Assembly (NCBI GenBank): GCA_036338695.1
Contig: JAYZBQ010000008.1
Coordinates: 1 to 26,180 of the forward strand
Source of the DNA: Myxococcota bacterium
GTDB taxonomy: Bacteria > Myxococcota > UBA4151
Reading direction: 5' to 3'
Length of the DNA: 26,180 nt
Of the stretch, positions 16,393 to 24,212 are shown piece after piece; within the stretch, counting starts at the first letter, position 1, and each line of letters starts with the position of its first letter. The notes below the pieces were generated by a model, which had not been told where the DNA came from, made no database searches, and worked only from the letters and a program-made list of their open reading frames with translations. A program made the position numbers and the translations under genes.

Positions 16393-17652
16393 GTGGATCA
16401 CATGCAGTTCGACGATTTGTTTGTCAGTTTGGACGTTGGATCGAGCAAGGTGGTCGCCACGGTCTGTGGTGAGGTTGAGGGTGACGACCGCTTGCACGTG
16501 CTGGCGAGCTCATCGGTTCCGAGCGATGGGCTCCGGCGCGGGATCGTGATCGATATTCAGCGCACCGCCAACGCTATCCGCCGTGCCATCGAGGACGCCG
16601 AGCTTCAGGCGGGCGTCGACATCGACTCGGCGACCGTCGGCGTCGCCAACAGCAACATCCGAAGCCTGAACTCAGAAGGCGTTGTAGCCGTGCGGGGCGC
16701 TGCGATCACGCCCGCCGATGTGCGCCGCTGCATCGAGGCGGCGAAGACACAGGCGATCCCGGCGGATCGTGAGGTGATCCACTCGCTCCCTCAGAGCTAC
16801 GCCGTCGACAACCACGACGGTGTTCGCGAGCCGGTCGGCATGGCAGGGCGGCGCCTGTCGGCGCGCGTCCACGTGGTGACAGCCGCCATCTCCAACATTA
16901 AGAACACGGTCCAGAGTATCAAGGCGGCTGGCTATGAGGTGGAGGACATCGTCCTCGAGCCGCTCGCGTCGGCTTACAGCGTGTTGCACAATGACGAAAA
17001 AGACCTTGGCGTCTGCGTCGTCGACTTAGGCTGCGGAACCACTGATCTCGCTATCTACTCGGATGGCGAACTCAAGCACACGCAGGTCCTTGAGATGGGC
17101 GGCGAGACCTTGACGCGTGAGCTCAGCGCTGAGCTGCTGACGCCGCTCGTCGACGCCGAGCGCATCAAGTGCGAGTGGGGTGTGGCGGTGGCGCACCGTG
17201 TCGAGGAGGGCGACTGGGTCGAGATCCCGTCGGTCGGTGGGCGTGCCAGCCGCAAGGTGGAGCGTCGACGCATCGCTGAATTTATTGAAGACCGCTTGGG
17301 GCGGCTCTTTGAGCGGATCCTGCACGCGCTGCAGCAGAGCGGTTACAGCGACCGGCTCGGTGGCGGCGTGGTCATCACAGGCGGCGGCGCCAACCTGCGT
17401 GGCTTAGCGGAGCTGGCCGAGCGGGTCTTGCATCTTCCCGTGCGGCGGGGCGTGCCTCACAACCTGGCGCAAGAGCGCGGGGTTGGCCCTGAGTCGGCTG
17501 TCGCCATCGGTCTGTGTCAGTACGCTCGGCATCACGCGGATGACGTCGGGGTGACCTTTAGGCGGCATCGGCATGTGGACGGTGAAACCACTGGGTTCTT
17601 CAAGATTTCCAGGCGTTTGAAAGAGATATTTTCGGCCTCACATCAAGGTTGA
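16393..17652 (+). CDS. ftsA: Cell division protein FtsA (canonical copy)
   Basis: LDVGSSKV, GLRRGIVID, 1C domain HSLPQSYAVD...EPVGMAGRRL, EPLAS, DLGCGTTD, GVVITGGG, amphipathic tail FFKISRRLKEIF. The start could also be ATG 16402. Confidence 0.97.
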   Translation: MDHMQFDDLFVSLDVGSSKVVATVCGEVEGDDRLHVLASSSVPSDGLRRGIVIDIQRTANAIRRAIEDAELQAGVDIDSATVGVANSNIRSLNSEGVVAVRGAAITPADVRRCIEAAKTQAIPADREVIHSLPQSYAVDNHDGVREPVGMAGRRLSARVHVVTAAISNIKNTVQSIKAAGYEVEDIVLEPLASAYSVLHNDEKDLGVCVVDLGCGTTDLAIYSDGELKHTQVLEMGGETLTRELSAELLTPLVDAERIKCEWGVAVAHRVEEGDWVEIPSVGGRASRKVERRRIAEFIEDRLGRLFERILHALQQSGYSDRLGGGVVITGGGANLRGLAELAERVLHLPVRRGVPHNLAQERGVGPESAVAIGLCQYARHHADDVGVTFRRHRHVDGETTGFFKISRRLKEIFSASHQG

Positions 17653-17749
17653 GGCGGATCGAGTTTAAGCGAGGCCCGGGTTGGGCCGTCGCTTGGTGGA
17701 GAGCGGCGCACGGAGCGCCACGGGTATGATGAAAGGAACGGCAGCCCCC

Positions 17750-19819
17750 ATGACCATCGATTTTGTTCAGTTCGTAGATGAGGAAGAAGAGATCACCGCA
17801 GACCAGGAGTTGTTCTGTGACGAGCCGACCTCCAATGAGGCCGAGTTGTTCTGTGATGACCCCGTGACGGACGTGAGCGAAGAGGCGGTCGAGTCGGCGG
17901 CTGCGCGCCAGGCGGAGACGATCCGCACCGCGCTGGATCAGCCCGTGCTGGAGGCCTGGAGTCAGGATCTTGCCATGGGCCCGACCATCACCGTCCTCGG
18001 TGTCGGTGGCGCGGGCTGCAACGCACTCGGGAGCTTGGTGCGCAGTGGGTTTGACGCGGCCACCATGGTCGCCTTCAACACCGACGTCCAAGATCTGCAC
18101 CTGTGCCCTGTGAGCGAGCGAGTTGTGCTCGGTTCGGAGTTGTGTCGTGGGCGCGGGGCAGGCGGTAAACCTGAGGTGGGCGCACTTGCGGCGCAGGAGT
18201 CACGGGCTCAGATCGAGCGAGCGCTTGCGGGTGTCGACCTCGCCTTTGTGGTCTTTGGCGCAGGTGGGGGCACCGGCTCAGGCGCAGGGCCCGAGATCTG
18301 CCACATCGCACGGGAGCTGGGCTGTCTCACCGTCGCTGTCGTGACCAAACCTTTCGCTGAAGAGGGTAAGCGCCGTCGCCGCAACGCCGCCGAGGCGTTC
18401 GAGGCGCTCGAGCGCTGCGCCGACTCCACCGTCATTGTGGCGAATGATCACATCGACAAGCTGTGTGACGAGAACGACTCGGTCGCCGCTGGGTTTGAGA
18501 CCGCTGACGGGATCCTTCGAGACGCGGTCGTCGGGATGGTGCGTCTCGCTCAGGCACCTGCGACCGGGCGTGGGAAATTGAACGTCGATTTCCAGGACGT
18601 CCGCACGGTCATGGAGAATCGTAAGAATGCGTTGATCGGGATCGGCGTTGCCAGCGGTCCCAACCGCGCCAACGAGGCGCTCCACGCCGCGATCTCATCG
18701 CCGCTGCTCGAAGACGCCACGCTGGAGGGCGCAACCGGTGTGCTGTGTCATATTCGCTATGGGTCCGCGTCGCTCACGATGACCGAGAACCGTCAGGTCA
18801 ACGCGTTGCTCACGGACGCGATCGATGAAGACGCTGAATTTATCACCGGGTTCTGTCAGGATCCCAGCTTGGGTGACGATATCGCCATTTTGGTGGTCGC
18901 CACAGGCTTCGATATGAACCCGTCGACGGCTGCGCCCTCCGAGGTAGCGGAGGCGTCGGCGCCTGCCGTTGGGAGCGTCCGTCCTGCCAAGATGACCTCC
19001 CGGGCGGAGGTCTCGGCAGATTGGCGGCTCGGGACGGCTGCAGAGCGCCATCAGCAGCGCATGGACGCCTTGGCGAAGCGTCGCGCACAGAGCCCGTTTC
19101 AGGCTCCGCCGTCGAGAGTGGCAGCCGCTCATCTCGACGATCACGGGATTCGGCGAGCCGCATCGCAAGGCGAGCTTGCGCTAGCGAGGGTCCACGCGTT
19201 GGTGCACCCACCCGCTGAGGCGAAACCAGCGGTTGCGACGACAGCGAGCTTCAACCCGCCGGCACCCCACGACCTGGGTGCGCCGGAGGTCGCAGGGTTC
19301 TCCATGCCAGCACAGGCTGCCGCAGCGCCCGCCGTGGCGCCGCTGGCTGCGGTCGCACACGAGCCGGCTCCAGCTGCACGCCCCGAGCCCTCGCAGCCCG
19401 CTCCGGTCTCGGCGCCTGAGCCTACGCTCGAGCGCCCGGCTCAGCCGGCCGCCGTGCGGCGCGCCGAGGAGGGGCGACCCATCCGTAAGCACGCTGTTCA
19501 GTTCGCGGCGCCCGAGATCGATCCCGGTGACAACCGCCTGTTTGGCTTTGAGGGGACCGAGGACGGGGAGCCCTCAGGGCAGTACATCGAAAACCTCACC
19601 TCACTCGTGCCGCAGGCGGCTCCTGCGGCGGTGGTGACGACCGCTGTTCATCAGGGCGCCCCCTTCGCCATGCAGCGACAGCAGGGTGGGCAGCCCGTCG
19701 AGTCGGCTGCTCGCGATCAGATCATCCAGGGTGAACCGGTCCAGCTCGAGCGCTCGGGTCAGCAGAACCTCTTGGGAATCGATGAGGACATCGATCTGCC
19801 GCCTTTCCTGCGTCGCTGA
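17750..19819 (+). CDS. ftsZ: Cell division protein FtsZ with N-terminal acidic extension and very long linker (about 689 aa)
   Basis: GVGGAGCNA, NTD, GAGGKPEVG, GGGTGSG tubulin signature, NVDFQDV T7 loop, VATG, C-terminal peptide DIDLPPFLRR. Start uncertain (17726, 17729, 17750 or 17975). AAAGGAA precedes 17750. Confidence 0.93.
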   Translation: MTIDFVQFVDEEEEITADQELFCDEPTSNEAELFCDDPVTDVSEEAVESAAARQAETIRTALDQPVLEAWSQDLAMGPTITVLGVGGAGCNALGSLVRSGFDAATMVAFNTDVQDLHLCPVSERVVLGSELCRGRGAGGKPEVGALAAQESRAQIERALAGVDLAFVVFGAGGGTGSGAGPEICHIARELGCLTVAVVTKPFAEEGKRRRRNAAEAFEALERCADSTVIVANDHIDKLCDENDSVAAGFETADGILRDAVVGMVRLAQAPATGRGKLNVDFQDVRTVMENRKNALIGIGVASGPNRANEALHAAISSPLLEDATLEGATGVLCHIRYGSASLTMTENRQVNALLTDAIDEDAEFITGFCQDPSLGDDIAILVVATGFDMNPSTAAPSEVAEASAPAVGSVRPAKMTSRAEVSADWRLGTAAERHQQRMDALAKRRAQSPFQAPPSRVAAAHLDDHGIRRAASQGELALARVHALVHPPAEAKPAVATTASFNPPAPHDLGAPEVAGFSMPAQAAAAPAVAPLAAVAHEPAPAARPEPSQPAPVSAPEPTLERPAQPAAVRRAEEGRPIRKHAVQFAAPEIDPGDNRLFGFEGTEDGEPSGQYIENLTSLVPQAAPAAVVTTAVHQGAPFAMQRQQGGQPVESAARDQIIQGEPVQLERSGQQNLLGIDEDIDLPPFLRR
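17807..17856 (+). repeat. Direct repeat GAGTTGTTCTGTGA x2 (36-nt period) encoding ELFCD
   Basis: Exact 14-nt copies at 17807-17820 and 17843-17856, in frame with ftsZ. Confidence 0.9.
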
Positions 19820-20298
19820 TGATCGCTGCCCGGCTCGTTGAGCAGCTCGCGCAGCGGGGTTGGTCCGTGGCAGCAGCCGAGTCCTGTACCGGTGGGATGA
19901 TCGCCAGCGCCTTGACCGAGGTGCCTGGCTCGTCAACTGTCTTTCGCTACGGGGTCGTCACCTACGCCAACGAGGCGAAAACGCGCCTGCTCGGCGTGCC
20001 CCCCGAGGTCTTCATCGCTGACGGTGCGGTCTCGGAGTCATGCGCTCGAGCGATGCTCATAGGGCTAAGGGAGCTCGCACAGGCGGAGCTCTGCTGCGCC
20101 GTGACCGGGATCGCTGGACCGGGTGGGGGATCCGCAGAGAAACCTGTGGGCACCGTCTGGGTGGGGCTGGGCGCGCTGGAGCGCAGCTGGCTCAAGCGGC
20201 ATCACTTCGAAGGGAGCCGGGCGCAGGTCCGCACCCAGGCGCGCCAGGTCGTCCTCAGGGGGATGAGTCGAATTTTGGAAGGGAGCTCACCATGGTAA
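19819..20298 (+). CDS. pncC: CinA C-terminal domain protein / NMN deamidase PncC family
   Basis: AESCTGG, PGSS, TYANEAK, GAVS, TGIAGPGGGS..KPVGTV. Stand-alone 159-aa domain. TGATG overlap with ftsZ. Confidence 0.9.
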   Translation: MIAARLVEQLAQRGWSVAAAESCTGGMIASALTEVPGSSTVFRYGVVTYANEAKTRLLGVPPEVFIADGAVSESCARAMLIGLRELAQAELCCAVTGIAGPGGGSAEKPVGTVWVGLGALERSWLKRHHFEGSRAQVRTQARQVVLRGMSRILEGSSPW

Positions 20299-21563
20299 GT
20301 GGTTTCTCATGGTTCAAGGAGCCGCACCAACGGCGCGACGGGTTGTGCACCGCCGTCGTGGACCTTGGCGCTCAGGTGATCCGAGTCTCGCTCGTCGATG
20401 ACGAGGGCTGCGCCCTCGCCTACGTGCCGGCGCCATCTGAGGGCATTGCGCAGGACGGCGCCTTGGTCGAGATCGACCGGTGTGGCGACCTCCTGAGTGG
20501 TTTGATCGCTCAGGCTGAGGGGCTCGGCGCCCACCAGGTCGATCGGTTGGTGCTGACGGTGCCGGATACCCAGCTCTTTAGCTTCTCCGGAACCGGGCAT
20601 GCCGGGATATCCAACCCAACCGTCGAGGTCAGTGACCTGTCGCGCGCGGCTGAGAACGCTGTTTTTAGTCAGGAGATCGCCGTCGGTCAGAAGCTCATTC
20701 ATGCGATCCCGACCGAGTGCATGCTCGACGGTCAGAGCGGTATCGAGGACCCCGTCGGGCTCGCCGGCTATCGCCTCGGTGTGCAATTCTTTTGGGTCTT
20801 TTGTCAGTCTGAGCATGTTGAGAACCTTCAGCGCCTTTGCGAGCGAGCGGGCTTGCCGCAGCCTGAGCTGATCGCTGCGCCGCTCGCCGCGGCGATGGGC
20901 GGCATCACACGCGACGAGGCGGAGCTCGGCGCCGTGGTCGTGGATCTCGGTCATTTGTGCACCTCGATGACCGCCTGGTCCGAGGGGGCGCCGCGCTGGA
21001 TGGGGCACGTGCCGACAGGTGGTCGCCACCTGAGCTCGGACCTGCTTCAGGTCTTCAAGCTGAGCGCCGAGCAGGCGGAGCGCACCCTCGTCAGTGGTTT
21101 ATCTGGCGTGGCTGAGCTCGAGGAGGCCGGCGGTCAGCTGTCGATCGGGCGGCGGCGGATCGACCGGCACAAGGCGGCGCGCGTGATCCAAGCTCGGCTG
21201 GAGGATATCTTTGAGCGCGTGCGCAACCGACTGACCACGCAAGCTTGGTGGCGGGTCGCTGAGAACGGGGTGATCCTGACCGGAGGTGCGGCTCAGATTC
21301 CGCACATCGATCGGCTCGCCGAGGTGGTCCTGGAGTGCCCGGTGCGGATCGCCAGCATGGAGCGGATCGAGCGCGACTGGACCTGGCCACCCGTTAACGC
21401 TGAGGTGGTGACGTTTCGGCGCTTGCCAGATCGAATGACCATCGCCGGTCAGCTTGAGTTCGTCCGTATGAACCACCTCCATCACCGCCAGATCGCCGCT
21501 CAGCGGCCGTGGCCTGCACCCGATCTGCGCGACCTCCATGAGGTCTTCGCTCGGGTGGGCTGA
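20292..21563 (+). CDS. Divergent second FtsA paralogue (FtsA-like actin-fold protein, 423 aa)
   Basis: Start reassigned to ATG 20292 (GGGAG RBS). Colinear with the FtsA at 16393: VDLGAQVIR, SEGIAQDGALVEI, IHAIPTECMLDGQSGIEDPVGLAGYRL, APLAAA, ELGAVVVDLG, GGRHLSSDL, IQARLEDIF, GVILTGGAAQI. Confidence 0.88.
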   Translation: MVSGFSWFKEPHQRRDGLCTAVVDLGAQVIRVSLVDDEGCALAYVPAPSEGIAQDGALVEIDRCGDLLSGLIAQAEGLGAHQVDRLVLTVPDTQLFSFSGTGHAGISNPTVEVSDLSRAAENAVFSQEIAVGQKLIHAIPTECMLDGQSGIEDPVGLAGYRLGVQFFWVFCQSEHVENLQRLCERAGLPQPELIAAPLAAAMGGITRDEAELGAVVVDLGHLCTSMTAWSEGAPRWMGHVPTGGRHLSSDLLQVFKLSAEQAERTLVSGLSGVAELEEAGGQLSIGRRRIDRHKAARVIQARLEDIFERVRNRLTTQAWWRVAENGVILTGGAAQIPHIDRLAEVVLECPVRIASMERIERDWTWPPVNAEVVTFRRLPDRMTIAGQLEFVRMNHLHHRQIAAQRPWPAPDLRDLHEVFARVG

Positions 21564-21616
21564 GGTCTTGGAGCGCAGCGTGAGCGCGTTCACCGTGCGA
21601 CATTTTTGACGCAACC

Positions 21617-21659
21617 CCTCCGTCAGATGACCGATACATGCTACGACACCTGACGGAGG
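21617..21659. repeat. Perfect 10-bp inverted repeat (hairpin or operator) between ftsA2 and the next gene
   Basis: CCTCCGTCAG (21617-21626) and CTGACGGAGG (21650-21659) with a 23-nt spacer. No U-tract follows on the + strand. Confidence 0.7.
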
Positions 21660-21701
21660 CAGGCTGCCCGCAGCCGCTCGGTCGCAGAAGAGGAGCAGAT
21701 C

Positions 21702-23057
21702 ATGCAGGTCGGTAACCCCAAATCGCAGTCCGGACTCACTGGCTTTCACTGGGCGGCGCAAGCTCAGGAGAACATGGCGAAGAGCCCGATGGGTGGCGTG
21801 GCCGGTATGCAACGCATGCTCGGTCAGTTCGGCGACTTGAGCAACTCGATGTCACCGTGGACGGCGACGACGACGGTCGGCTACGCAGCGCTCCCTGATT
21901 TCAGCAACTCGGGGCATCTTGACCTCGACAAGAGCAAGAATCTGGTCTCGACCCCTGGCGGCTACCAGATCACGGTGGACGAGGGCACCGTCCGGATTAA
22001 GACCCCCGAGGGCAAATGGACGCAGCTTAAGGCGGAGCCGCCGAATCGAACCCTGGTGAACACCACGGACGATGTGCAGACTCGCCAGCAGGCGACCGTG
22101 GAGCGTCAGCTCGCCCGTGACCCGGTGGTGCGGGAGTCCGACGGTGACGTGTGGCGCTATCAGGGCACCGGCTCGTTCCATCTCCCGGACGGCACCAAGA
22201 TCACGATTCACGAGAAGGGCGCCGGCAAGGATCTGCACATCGACCAGGTCGACATCTACAATGGCAACAAGCACGTTGGGATCAAGAGCCAGCTCACCGC
22301 GTCGGAGTGGCAGACGGTGGATCGCAAGGTGGAGCGCAGCGTCGGCAACTGGCGCACGACCTCGAGCAACCGCCGCACGCAGTGGCAGGGGCGCCGCGGT
22401 CAAGTGATCCGCACCGACACGCAGCAGCGCACGATCCGCACGACGACGACGGAGACGCAGCACGCCAAGCAGCAGTTCGCAACGACCTTCACCGACGTTA
22501 CGCGTGACGGCTTCGCTCACGACATGCGCACCGACGACGGGCGCACCTTCCGCATCGCCGGTGACGGTGATGACTGGTCGGAGAAGGGGCGAGAGGTCAT
22601 GAGCGGCGCAGGTAAGGGCAAGGACGATAAGACCCTAGCGTACAAGCTTGGCGCGAAGGTGGACCCGAGCTGGGCGGGCTTCCGCCCGGTCGAGGTGCCG
22701 TGGAACGTCTACGCCTTTGGGATGACGACGCTGACTCCGAACATGATGACCGAGCAGTGGAACCAGAGCCCCGAGCACTTCGAGCAGCTTGGACAGCAGT
22801 TCGCAGGCCACCTTCTGCAGGGGCATCTCGGGATGACGACGTCGGTGACGAACATGGGCGGCTTTAACGCCATCCATGGCGGCCCAATCGGCGGGGCTGC
22901 GCTGTTCGGCGCAGGCTACAACGCTGGCTTCAACGCCGCAGCGCAGACCGCAGCGATGCAGAGCTCGGTGATCAGTATGCTCGGCGTGTTTAGCCAGATC
23001 GATCAGCTCAGCGACAACCTGAGCGCGGCATGGCTCGGCTCCCAGGTTCTTCGCTGA
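21702..23057 (+). CDS. DUF1521/MIIA-like domain protein, putative type III-secreted substrate (451 aa)
   Basis: Strong RBS (AGAGGAG) and strongly C/G-ending codons. GGYQITV...DPVVRESDG..W...GSFHLPDGTKITI...VDIYNG...DG..HD...DG resembles DUF1521 (from recall). No Sec signal peptide. Coupled to a SycD-like gene. Confidence 0.6.
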   Translation: MQVGNPKSQSGLTGFHWAAQAQENMAKSPMGGVAGMQRMLGQFGDLSNSMSPWTATTTVGYAALPDFSNSGHLDLDKSKNLVSTPGGYQITVDEGTVRIKTPEGKWTQLKAEPPNRTLVNTTDDVQTRQQATVERQLARDPVVRESDGDVWRYQGTGSFHLPDGTKITIHEKGAGKDLHIDQVDIYNGNKHVGIKSQLTASEWQTVDRKVERSVGNWRTTSSNRRTQWQGRRGQVIRTDTQQRTIRTTTTETQHAKQQFATTFTDVTRDGFAHDMRTDDGRTFRIAGDGDDWSEKGREVMSGAGKGKDDKTLAYKLGAKVDPSWAGFRPVEVPWNVYAFGMTTLTPNMMTEQWNQSPEHFEQLGQQFAGHLLQGHLGMTTSVTNMGGFNAIHGGPIGGAALFGAGYNAGFNAAAQTAAMQSSVISMLGVFSQIDQLSDNLSAAWLGSQVLR

Positions 23058-23737
23058 TGGCGGGGGATGACGGCAGCCGCTCGGATTTTGAGAAGCCTGC
23101 GCTCAGCCTCGACGAGCTCAGCCCAAAACCTAAGCAAGCGACGGAGTCGGCCAGCAGGCCGGCTCCTGTCGCGTCCGAGCCGATCGCAGCGGAGATCACC
23201 GCGGAGCGTCCGGCTTACCGTCAGCATCGGGCGGCGCCGCCGGATGCTGACCTGAACACCCAGATCGATCCGGAGACCCGGACGCGCCTGTTCTTGCAAG
23301 GCGAGATCAACCTGGCGGAGCTGTACGCGCTGAGCCACGAGGAGCTGTATGACATCGCCGTTCAGGGGCAGCGCTTCTTTGACGCCAAACGGCATGACGA
23401 CGCGCTGAAGGTCTTTGAGGGGCTCACGGCGCTCGATCCGTACAACGCGGACTTTCACGCCGGGCTCGGGGCGATCAAACAGTTCAAGAAAGACAAGGAC
23501 GGCGCGCTGATCGAGTACGATCGAGCGATCCAGCTGCATGAAGGCCACGTAGCGGCTCTGACAAACCGCGCGGAGATCTACGTCGAGCGCGGCGAATACG
23601 AGCTCGCCTTCAAGGACTTGAGCGTCGTGGCGACGGTGGACCCCGAGGGTAAGGACGGACACGCCGGCCGTGCCCGCGGATTGACCAAGGCGGTGATGCG
23701 CCTGCTGCAAGATCGCCTCGAGGGCGAGCAGAGCTGA
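23057..23737 (+). CDS. TPR protein, SycD/LcrH-like (class II T3SS chaperone-like)
   Basis: Start at ATG 23057 (TGATG overlap). GEINLAELYALSHEELYDIAVQGQRFFDAKRHDDALKVFEGLTALDPYNADFHAGLGAIKQ fits the SycD/LcrH layout. About three TPR motifs follow a disordered N-terminus. Confidence 0.7.
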   Translation: MAGDDGSRSDFEKPALSLDELSPKPKQATESASRPAPVASEPIAAEITAERPAYRQHRAAPPDADLNTQIDPETRTRLFLQGEINLAELYALSHEELYDIAVQGQRFFDAKRHDDALKVFEGLTALDPYNADFHAGLGAIKQFKKDKDGALIEYDRAIQLHEGHVAALTNRAEIYVERGEYELAFKDLSVVATVDPEGKDGHAGRARGLTKAVMRLLQDRLEGEQS

Positions 23738-23744
23738 GCCCTCC

Positions 23745-24212
23745 ATGACCTTGTGGATTGATGCGGACGCCGCGCCGCGGCTGATGAAGGATGTCGCGTA
23801 CAGGGTCTCGGATCGAACCGGGCTCAAGGTGACCTTAGTCGCCAACCGCTGGCAGCGGACCCCGACCTCGCCGCATATTCGCATGATCGTCGTGGGCGAT
23901 GGGTTCGACGAGGCAGACGATTACATCGCCGAGCACTGTGAGCCAGGCGATGTGGTGGTCTCGGCGGATATCCTGCTCGCTGATCGCATCGTCGCCAAAG
24001 GCGTCGCCTTGATCACCCCCAAAGGTGAAGAGCTCGATGCGGACAACATCGCAGAGCGCGTCGGGCAGCGAAATTTTATGGAAGAGGCGCGCAGCGCCGA
24101 GCTGGTGAGTGGGGGACCGCCGCCCTATTCAGCGCGCGATCAACAGAGCTTTACCAACGCCCTCGATCGCGTGCTCACGGCGCAGCGGCGGCGTTTCCCG
24201 TCGAGTCGCTGA
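23745..24212 (+). CDS. yaiI: YaiI/YqxD family protein (UPF0178/DUF188)
   Basis: LWIDADAAP, LVAN, GFDEADDYI, DVVVSADILLA, GGPPPY...F.NALD. Confidence 0.9.
   Translation: MTLWIDADAAPRLMKDVAYRVSDRTGLKVTLVANRWQRTPTSPHIRMIVVGDGFDEADDYIAEHCEPGDVVVSADILLADRIVAKGVALITPKGEELDADNIAERVGQRNFMEEARSAELVSGGPPPYSARDQQSFTNALDRVLTAQRRRFPSSR

Follow-up and report, generated by a model that had tools for sequence, protein, structure and literature searches.

Two coupled genes and their products

The 26,180-nt stretch at positions 1–26,180 of contig JAYZBQ010000008.1 from the genome of a Myxococcota bacterium (assembly GCA_036338695.1; 3.36 Mb in 99 contigs, 93.6% complete), hereafter the window, carries a pair of genes coding for a divergent DUF1521 protein (gene 1) and a chaperone-like protein of the LcrH/SycD group (gene 2). 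An earlier interpretation made from the nucleotide letters (the sequence-only reading) described the pair as an orphan type III secretion system (T3SS) module. We relate it here to T3SS*, the T3SS of myxobacteria, using G000 for the genome studied, C-numbers for its contigs, other G-numbers for relatives, L for loci and P for proteins. The reported gene layout was reproduced: a TGATG overlap joins the genes (gene 1 TGA at 23055–57, gene 2 ATG at 23057–59), 138 nt separate gene 1 from the upstream open reading frame (ORF; stop at 21563), and gene 1 has a strong ribosome-binding site of its own (Table 1). The called ORF of gene 2 opens at 23030, and its closest homologues begin at the methionine equivalent to 23057. 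The G+C content (0.64) is unremarkable.

Table 1. Features of the gene pair and its flanks in the window.
Feature	Position	Strand	Basis or remark
Gene 1, 451-aa divergent DUF1521 protein	21702..23057	+	ORF, Pfam, profile, alignment, model, dN/dS
Gene 2, 226-aa LcrH/SycD-like TPR chaperone	23057..23737	+	NCBIfam, PDB, homologues, tree
Ribosome-binding site GAGGAG, 6 nt 5' of gene 1 ATG	21690..21695	+	sequence
Sigma28 (FliA/WhiG)-like promoter element GCAAC-N15-CCGATA	21611..21636	+	putative promoter function
Insertion 1, aa ~109–137	22026..22112	+	alignment, profile comparison
R139-D140-P141-V142, aligned with GDPH	22116..22127	+	alignment
Insertion 2, aa ~200–260	22299..22481	+	alignment, model, dN/dS
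yaiI/yqxD (DUF188) gene, 7 nt 3' of gene 2	23745..24212	+	probably incidental

Searched alone, gene 1 matches DUF1521 (PF07481) with an E-value of 0.0046 and 17.4 bits, under the Pfam gathering cut-off of 23.6. Orthologues score above it (P0019, 26.8 bits; G292, 28.0; G305, 28.2; G317, 24.3), and PF07481 is present in 9 of 39 gene 1 homologues. We also compared family profiles (hhalign). The gene-1 profile (gene 1 plus 35 of 39 hits, omitting the self hit and three partial proteins) matched that of canonical DUF1521 proteins (35 rows, 24 of them chosen by the motif Gly-Asp-Pro-His, GDPH) at 99.9% and an E-value of 1.3e-32 over 163 columns, which bears out the proposed DUF1521-like core. Gene 1 shares 388 of 451 residues with its orthologue at L006, and the ratio of nonsynonymous to synonymous substitution rates (dN/dS, here always against L006) is 0.065, as expected of a constrained gene.

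The best NCBIfam match of gene 2 is TIGR02552 (LcrH/SycD; E-value 2.3e-19), as the sequence-only reading had anticipated. Its 69.5 bits lie below the curated cut-off of 104.8, and the match spans profile positions 2–118 of 136, which cover the N-terminal helix and three tetratricopeptide repeats (TPRs); the next family follows at 6.4e-10. Such a sub-threshold score is normal for the group, since the chaperone that adjoins a canonical DUF1521 gene inside the T3SS* cluster of G245 reaches a similar 70.7 bits. Gene 2 is the top TIGR02552 match among 21 in G000, and its PDB matches are AcrH, PcrH and SycD (E-values 4e-7 to 6e-6). In a tree with an unresolved backbone, it sits on short branches amid T3SS*-linked chaperones, and generic TPR controls are long-branched. 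Family assignment and synteny suggest that gene 2 is likely a dedicated LcrH-type chaperone of gene 1. Gene 1 is probably the chaperone's substrate and secreted.

Conservation of the pair

Full-length orthologues of gene 1 occur in 8 of 401 genomes of the phylum, including four of five family relatives. The chaperone gene lies directly 3' of the orthologue in all eight, although one locus ends at a contig edge and another is broken by Ns, and the expected conservation of the pairing is borne out. In a ninth genome a partial gene 1 is fused to the chaperone ORF. Named relatives are Myxococcota, in keeping with the lineage suspected earlier. The patchy distribution argues that gene 1 is an accessory or interchangeable part.

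Pairs with a canonical, GDPH-containing DUF1521 gene have the same gene order and chaperone family, and a chaperone gene lies 3' at 19 of the 21 such loci fetched. G000 has one of these pairs on contig C92, preceded by the same promoter-like element (see below), and pairs reside inside T3SS* clusters in G245 and G181; in the complete genome G245, the pair lies between sctU and sctV. Unlike gene 1, the canonical form keeps GDPH, lacks the long arm described below and is widespread, DUF1521 being found in 111 of the 401 genomes versus 8 for the gene-1 form. The latter is the only DUF1521 form found in the four family relatives (assemblies 85–94% complete). SctV is encoded in 220 genomes: 100 have both DUF1521 and sctV, 11 (including G000) DUF1521 alone, 120 sctV alone and 170 neither, counts in which related genomes are not independent and one sctV genome, G195, is unpublished. 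Seven of the eight genomes with a gene-1 orthologue have sctV.

Other DUF1521 architectures were also seen. P0069 has a GDPH-DUF1521 core fused to a C-terminus that we judged by eye to be needle/Bsp22-like, P0057 is of the gene-1 type without the arm and fused to a 450-aa extra region, P0063 is a partial gene-1-type protein fused to a chaperone, and P0070 has a tandem double DUF1521 domain. In a record labelled Bdellovibrionales (L012:2–2087), a distant relative of gene 1 and its neighbour both end in a needle-like C-terminal helix.

A dispersed T3SS*

Reviews and a 2025 study describe the "needleless" T3SS* of Myxococcus as required for prey lysis and as lacking needle, tip and translocon; they know of no substrate for it and leave several of its LcrH homologues unexplained (PMC10433427, PMC12075869, PMC12428579, PMC3459982). 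As proposed earlier, G000 encodes a T3SS away from the pair: sctJ, N, Q, R, S, T and U are on contigs other than that of gene 1 and are distinct from the flagellar copies. Contig C59 has sctJ, L, N and O; C45 has sctP, Q, R, S and T; C74 has sctU, X and a SctY-like gene, followed by the gene for a 365-aa protein whose C-terminus is needle-like; C17 has a SctD-like gene and C1 a further LcrH-like chaperone gene. The head of a T3SS* cluster stands alone on C42 (30138–33021; L059), with needle/Bsp22-like, CdsG-like chaperone, FliA/WhiG-like sigma factor and SctI-like genes. The best G000 matches to genes of the intact G245 cluster, the content of which fits the published description of T3SS* (PMC10433427, excerpt), fall on C42, C59, C45, C74 and C17 (SctN 65% and SctR 60% identical). 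SctR and SctU of G000 score above their cut-offs, and SctN reaches 603.6 against 604.75. We did not find sctV in the assembly (93.6% complete); it is above cut-off in all five family relatives.

T3SS* genes are thus spread over at least seven contigs in G000, and the pair is very probably one piece of this dispersed system. The sequence-only description of a stand-alone pair therefore holds in that the sct genes are elsewhere, but the pair is no orphan: the whole T3SS* is scattered, and the GDPH-type paralogue pair resides in intact clusters. The four points on which that reading had staked itself, a DUF1521 match, the chaperone family of gene 2, export genes in the genome and conservation of the pairing, were all found. 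The core gene set, including several LcrH homologues, resembles that of Myxococcus xanthus (MXAN_2434–2464; PMC10433427, excerpt). Unlike that system, the genes are scattered here, and SctF-like small genes and presumed DUF1521 clients contrast with the published lack of needle, tip, translocon and substrates.

The genes on C74 also bear on an explanation that makes gene 1 a regulator or gate partner (SctX/SctW-like) inside the cell, bound to gene 2 and not exposed on the outside. LcrH has homologues in the SctY-type chaperones, which work at the export gate (PMC9163089). However, a separate trio of sctU, X and a SctY-like gene is present on C74, and relatives with DUF1521 are secreted proteins (PMC6506597, excerpt). 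We give this explanation very little credence.

A promoter-like element shared with needle-like genes

We identified by eye an element, GCAAC-N15/16-CCGATA, 65 nt upstream of gene 1. It also stands before the first gene of the G245 cluster and, in G000, before the C92 DUF1521 gene, the gene of the C74 365-aa protein and the needle-like gene on C42, and it is kept at the orthologous loci L006, L007 and L009 (L008 has no upstream sequence). L010, L011 and L048 lack it, and none was found upstream of the DUF1521 gene and small needle-like genes of G245 itself or of flgM and four flagellin-like genes. The window has one match (0.01 expected; one of 100 shuffles had one). G000 has 12 matches with spacers of 15 or 16 nt, four of which had defined the motif, against a total of 23 for the 16 remaining spacer lengths between 8 and 25 nt (mean 1.4 each). 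Five other genomes have 39 matches versus 11 for a reversed control.

Among the 30 of these 39 loci that we examined, the element lies before gene-1 orthologues or needle-like genes at 6 and before pilin genes (Flp or TadE) at 5; 11 are unassigned or likely chance matches and 4 have no ORF. Others of the 30 precede genes for an amidase_2 and peptidoglycan-binding protein, a transglutaminase-like protein and EF-hand proteins. Other matches in G000 stand before genes for proteins of transglutaminase-like, DUF5995 and, weakly, CHAP type and before two genes of unknown kind (L062–L066, on C48, C80, C38, C65 and C22); one precedes a probable lipoprotein gene and one has no ORF.

The element resembles what we take to be the −10 consensus of sigma28. 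It may be recognised by the sigma factor encoded on C42, and its distribution suggests that the pair would be co-regulated with needle/filament-like genes. The products of element-borne genes at L062–L066 and L074 (the G245 amidase_2 and peptidoglycan-binding protein) show no obvious signal peptide by eye and are candidate T3SS* substrates. In family relatives, the element occurs upstream of Flp pilin and TadE-like genes at L082, L091, L095, L086 and L092, and G000 has a copy with one mismatch near 23322 on C53; this hints that Kil/Tad and T3SS* are regulated together. A perfect 9-bp inverted repeat, CTCCGTCAG / CTGACGGAG (window 21619–21627 and 21650–21658), overlaps the element; in L006 and L007, good conservation is limited to its right arm. 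The repeat is a possible operator or hairpin.

These data also bear on whether the pair could serve flagellar export or an unrelated pathway, in which case gene 2 would be one of the generic TPR proteins and its T3SS* link would be historical. G000 does have an apparently complete flagellar gene set (C76:57182–84645 and C48:437931–446875) with its own FliA and several flagellin-like genes, and TIGR02552 is weakly matched in 12 of 14 control genomes too. Some gene-2 homologues are named TadD, which, with the element 5' of Flp/TadE genes in relatives, would make a Tad/Kil link possible. Yet canonical pairs lie inside T3SS* clusters, the element does not precede flagellin genes, nine orders of magnitude separate LcrH_SycD from the second-best family, and gene 2 is short-branched among T3SS*-linked chaperones. 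We consider such a role quite improbable and retain the assignment to T3SS*.

Loss of the GDPH histidine

DUF1521 is the MIIA (metal-ion-inducible autocleavage) domain, which depends on Ca2+ for its cleavage behind the GDPH Asp (PMC6506597, excerpt). Like NopE1 and NopE2 of Bradyrhizobium and VIC_001052 of Vibrio coralliilyticus, gene 1 has the homologous beta core, the association with a T3SS, the aligned Asp-Pro and a low-complexity, signal-less N-terminus. Unlike them, it has two insertions (~25 and ~52 aa), is coupled to an LcrH-like chaperone gene and belongs with T3SS* rather than with a host-directed injectisome. Furthermore, the GDPH site reads RDPV in gene 1 and RDP[AVI] across its family. 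Residue 142 is Ala in 20, Val in 14 and Ile in 2 of the 36 aligned rows and His in none, and merely 5 rows keep the Gly. In contrast, the His is invariant in the canonical alignment, 24 of whose 35 rows were picked by GDPH.

In the VWD domain of FCGBP, a His-to-Asn substitution abolishes GDPH cleavage (PMC10880436, excerpt). Because the His is absent and by analogy with that mutagenesis, we predict with reasonable confidence that gene 1 does not cleave itself. The label MIIA-like thus stands for the homology but probably not for the autocleavage that it implied. Weighing against this prediction, D140 and P141 are kept in 36 of 36 rows, the downstream D147/G148 are equally invariant, and dN/dS is 0.009 in segment 138–199. 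This conservation urges caution and would suit a divergent MIIA substrate that still cuts at D140–P141 with Ca2+, as NopE1 and VIC_001052 do. We regard that alternative as improbable, given the missing His and the replacement by an insertion of the strand that precedes the Asp.

Insertions and predicted fold

The joint alignment of gene-1 and canonical proteins reveals both insertions, the first ~25 aa before the Asp-Pro and the second ~52 aa at residues 203–256. Insertion 1 is not in canonical DUF1521 and directly precedes the Asp-Pro; its dN/dS is 0.027, and the predicted local distance difference test score (pLDDT) is below 50 at residues 125–139. Insertion 2 is Thr/Arg/Gln-rich and hydrophilic, with a net charge of +7; homologues have 38–63 aa here, and their deletions centre on the turn. 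It is predicted to form a long beta-hairpin arm (strands 190–214, 218–229, 232–242 and 245–263; pLDDT 62–94), both faces of which are polar.

The rest of gene 1 comprises a low-complexity N-terminus (residues 1–60), the beta core (~61–325) and a C-terminal amphipathic helix of low confidence (~412–450). The composition noted earlier for both termini was recovered: residues 1–62 are 15% Gly, 11% Ala and 10% each Ser, Gln and Met, and residues 326–451, described as moderately hydrophobic, are 13% Gly and 11% Ala. No transmembrane helix was found (maximum 19-residue Kyte-Doolittle mean of 1.15, in residues 326–451) and no Sec signal was seen by eye, no signal predictor having been run. VWD fold matches are all weak. 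Unlike VWD domains with GDPH autocleavage (FCGBP, mucins), gene 1 lacks disulfides, has lost the His and has gained the arm. Searches of Pfam, NCBIfam and PDB sequences gave no catalytic family.

As in the class II pairs LcrH/SycD-YopB/D, PcrH-PopB/D and AcrH-AopB/D, the TPR chaperone gene adjoins that of its presumed client. Unlike class II translocators, gene 1 is all-beta and hydrophilic and lacks P/VxLxxP, which we take to be the chaperone-binding motif of class II clients; a C-terminal match that looks like chance is present in 3 of 36 rows. A classical SctE/SctB translocator was ruled out by the missing transmembrane segment and motif and by the beta-rich model.

The arm also bears on the explanation of gene 1 as an effector or toxin that is delivered. 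The Arg-rich arm would harm the prey envelope, as a beta-pore or a lipopolysaccharide or peptidoglycan binder, and gene 2 would provide both chaperoning and self-protection. However, the arm is polar on both faces, unlike membrane-spanning hairpins, and is under strong purifying selection (dN/dS 0.056). LcrH-type chaperones, moreover, usually serve translocators or gate components and, to our knowledge, are not normally used for effectors. An effector therefore seems unlikely to us.

Needle-like genes near canonical pairs

In 5 of 21 short loci, and likewise in the larger G245 and G181 regions, the canonical pair is flanked by two near-identical SctF-like genes of 71–77 aa. Such flanking copies occur at L045 (G245), L056, L044, L039, L031, L036, which has three, and L037; the two G245 copies (L045:14129–14401 and 16544–16816) are identical at 271 of 273 nt. 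One needle-like gene lies 3' of the gene-1 pair in L011 and L048. Matches to PF09392 are full-length but weak and below cut-off (E-values 0.01 and 2.9e-4, for two of eight alignment members). The needle-like profile also matches 7y6c_F, a chain 43 residues long in a T3SS needle-chaperone complex (E-value 8.6e-6), which we take to be the needle subunit, the entry label naming the co-chaperone. G245 has, besides these genes, a separate SctI-like gene that adjoins sctJ; SctI is homologous to SctF.

SctF was reported absent from Myxo systems by Abby and Rocha (excerpt of PMC3459982). The SctF-like genes, as judged from their sequences, are at odds with the needleless label, and their repeats could allow cassette exchange. 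We also note that the 365-aa protein of C74 (17535–18632; L003:6536–7633), with its promoter element and needle-like C-terminus, has a weak SseD match (E-value 7e-4) and is a candidate filament protein or translocator.

Genomic surroundings

On its 5' side the pair is preceded by division and cell wall (dcw) genes, by ftsZ, by a cinA-like gene and by a second gene resembling ftsA. The latter is divergent, follows ftsZ and cinA (window 20295–21563) and is also present in L006 and L007. The FtsZ ORF (window 17681–19819) encodes 712 aa (697 aa in L006), of which ~100 at the N-terminus and ~300 at the C-terminus are extra. The DUF188 gene is found 3' of the pair in L007 but not in L008, L010 and L011. 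As the neighbours of the pair differ between genomes, the position after dcw is incidental.

A proposed structural role in T3SS*

We somewhat favour a reading in which gene 1 is a chaperoned, probably non-cleaving T3SS* substrate, working like a late one, and has a structural function, that of a tip or adaptor facing the prey, instead of an enzymatic one. Several points weigh toward such a distal, structural role over an enzymatic toxin: the class of the chaperone, the link to needle-like genes, the P0069 fusion, the lack of a catalytic signature and the independent proposal that nopE substitutes for the translocon gene nopX (PMC7643967, excerpt). The sequence-only reading had left a translocator, a toxin or a surface-structure subunit open; the classical translocator falls and the structural subunit is preferred over the toxin.

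In the proposed mechanism, the FliA-like sigma factor encoded with T3SS* would transcribe the pair along with the needle/filament-like subunits through the shared element. The TGATG overlap would match the amounts of chaperone and cargo, which may bind each other as family and synteny suggest. By analogy with class II chaperones, gene 2 would keep the signal-less cargo export-competent and pass it to the SctN/SctV gate. Outside the cell, the core may fold into a VWD-like beta-sandwich, to judge from the weak matches, and, the His being gone, would stay uncut, as VWD mutagenesis suggests. The modelled hydrophilic beta-arm, ~8–12 nm if straight, could then pair with its neighbours or engage the prey envelope.

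A broader and more speculative proposal, which we hold only tentatively, is that T3SS* in fact makes a needle or filament out of overlooked SctF-like subunits and that chaperoned, VWD-like DUF1521 proteins are interchangeable tip or translocation parts for bacterial prey. These would come as a self-cleaving GDPH form and a non-cleaving form whose long beta-arms come together as a conduit or grappling arm. The T3SS*-encoded sigma28-like factor would co-express the parts with Kil/Tad pilins and signal-less peptidoglycan hydrolases. If true, the promoter element lists long-sought T3SS* effectors.

The GDPH loss, the two insertions and the promoter-like element are new relative to the sequence-only reading. 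We found no literature link of DUF1521 to myxobacteria or LcrH chaperones, in a search that lay outside the primary papers on T3SS* genetics and NopE/MIIA mutagenesis, which may note some of the genes. The locus provides a named candidate client for the unexplained LcrH homologues of T3SS*, and its natural, putatively non-cleaving variant probes the purpose of MIIA autocleavage. From the promoter element comes a short list of testable candidates for substrates and for needle-like subunits. The locus turns the question of the cargo and conduit of T3SS* into specific deletions and assays.

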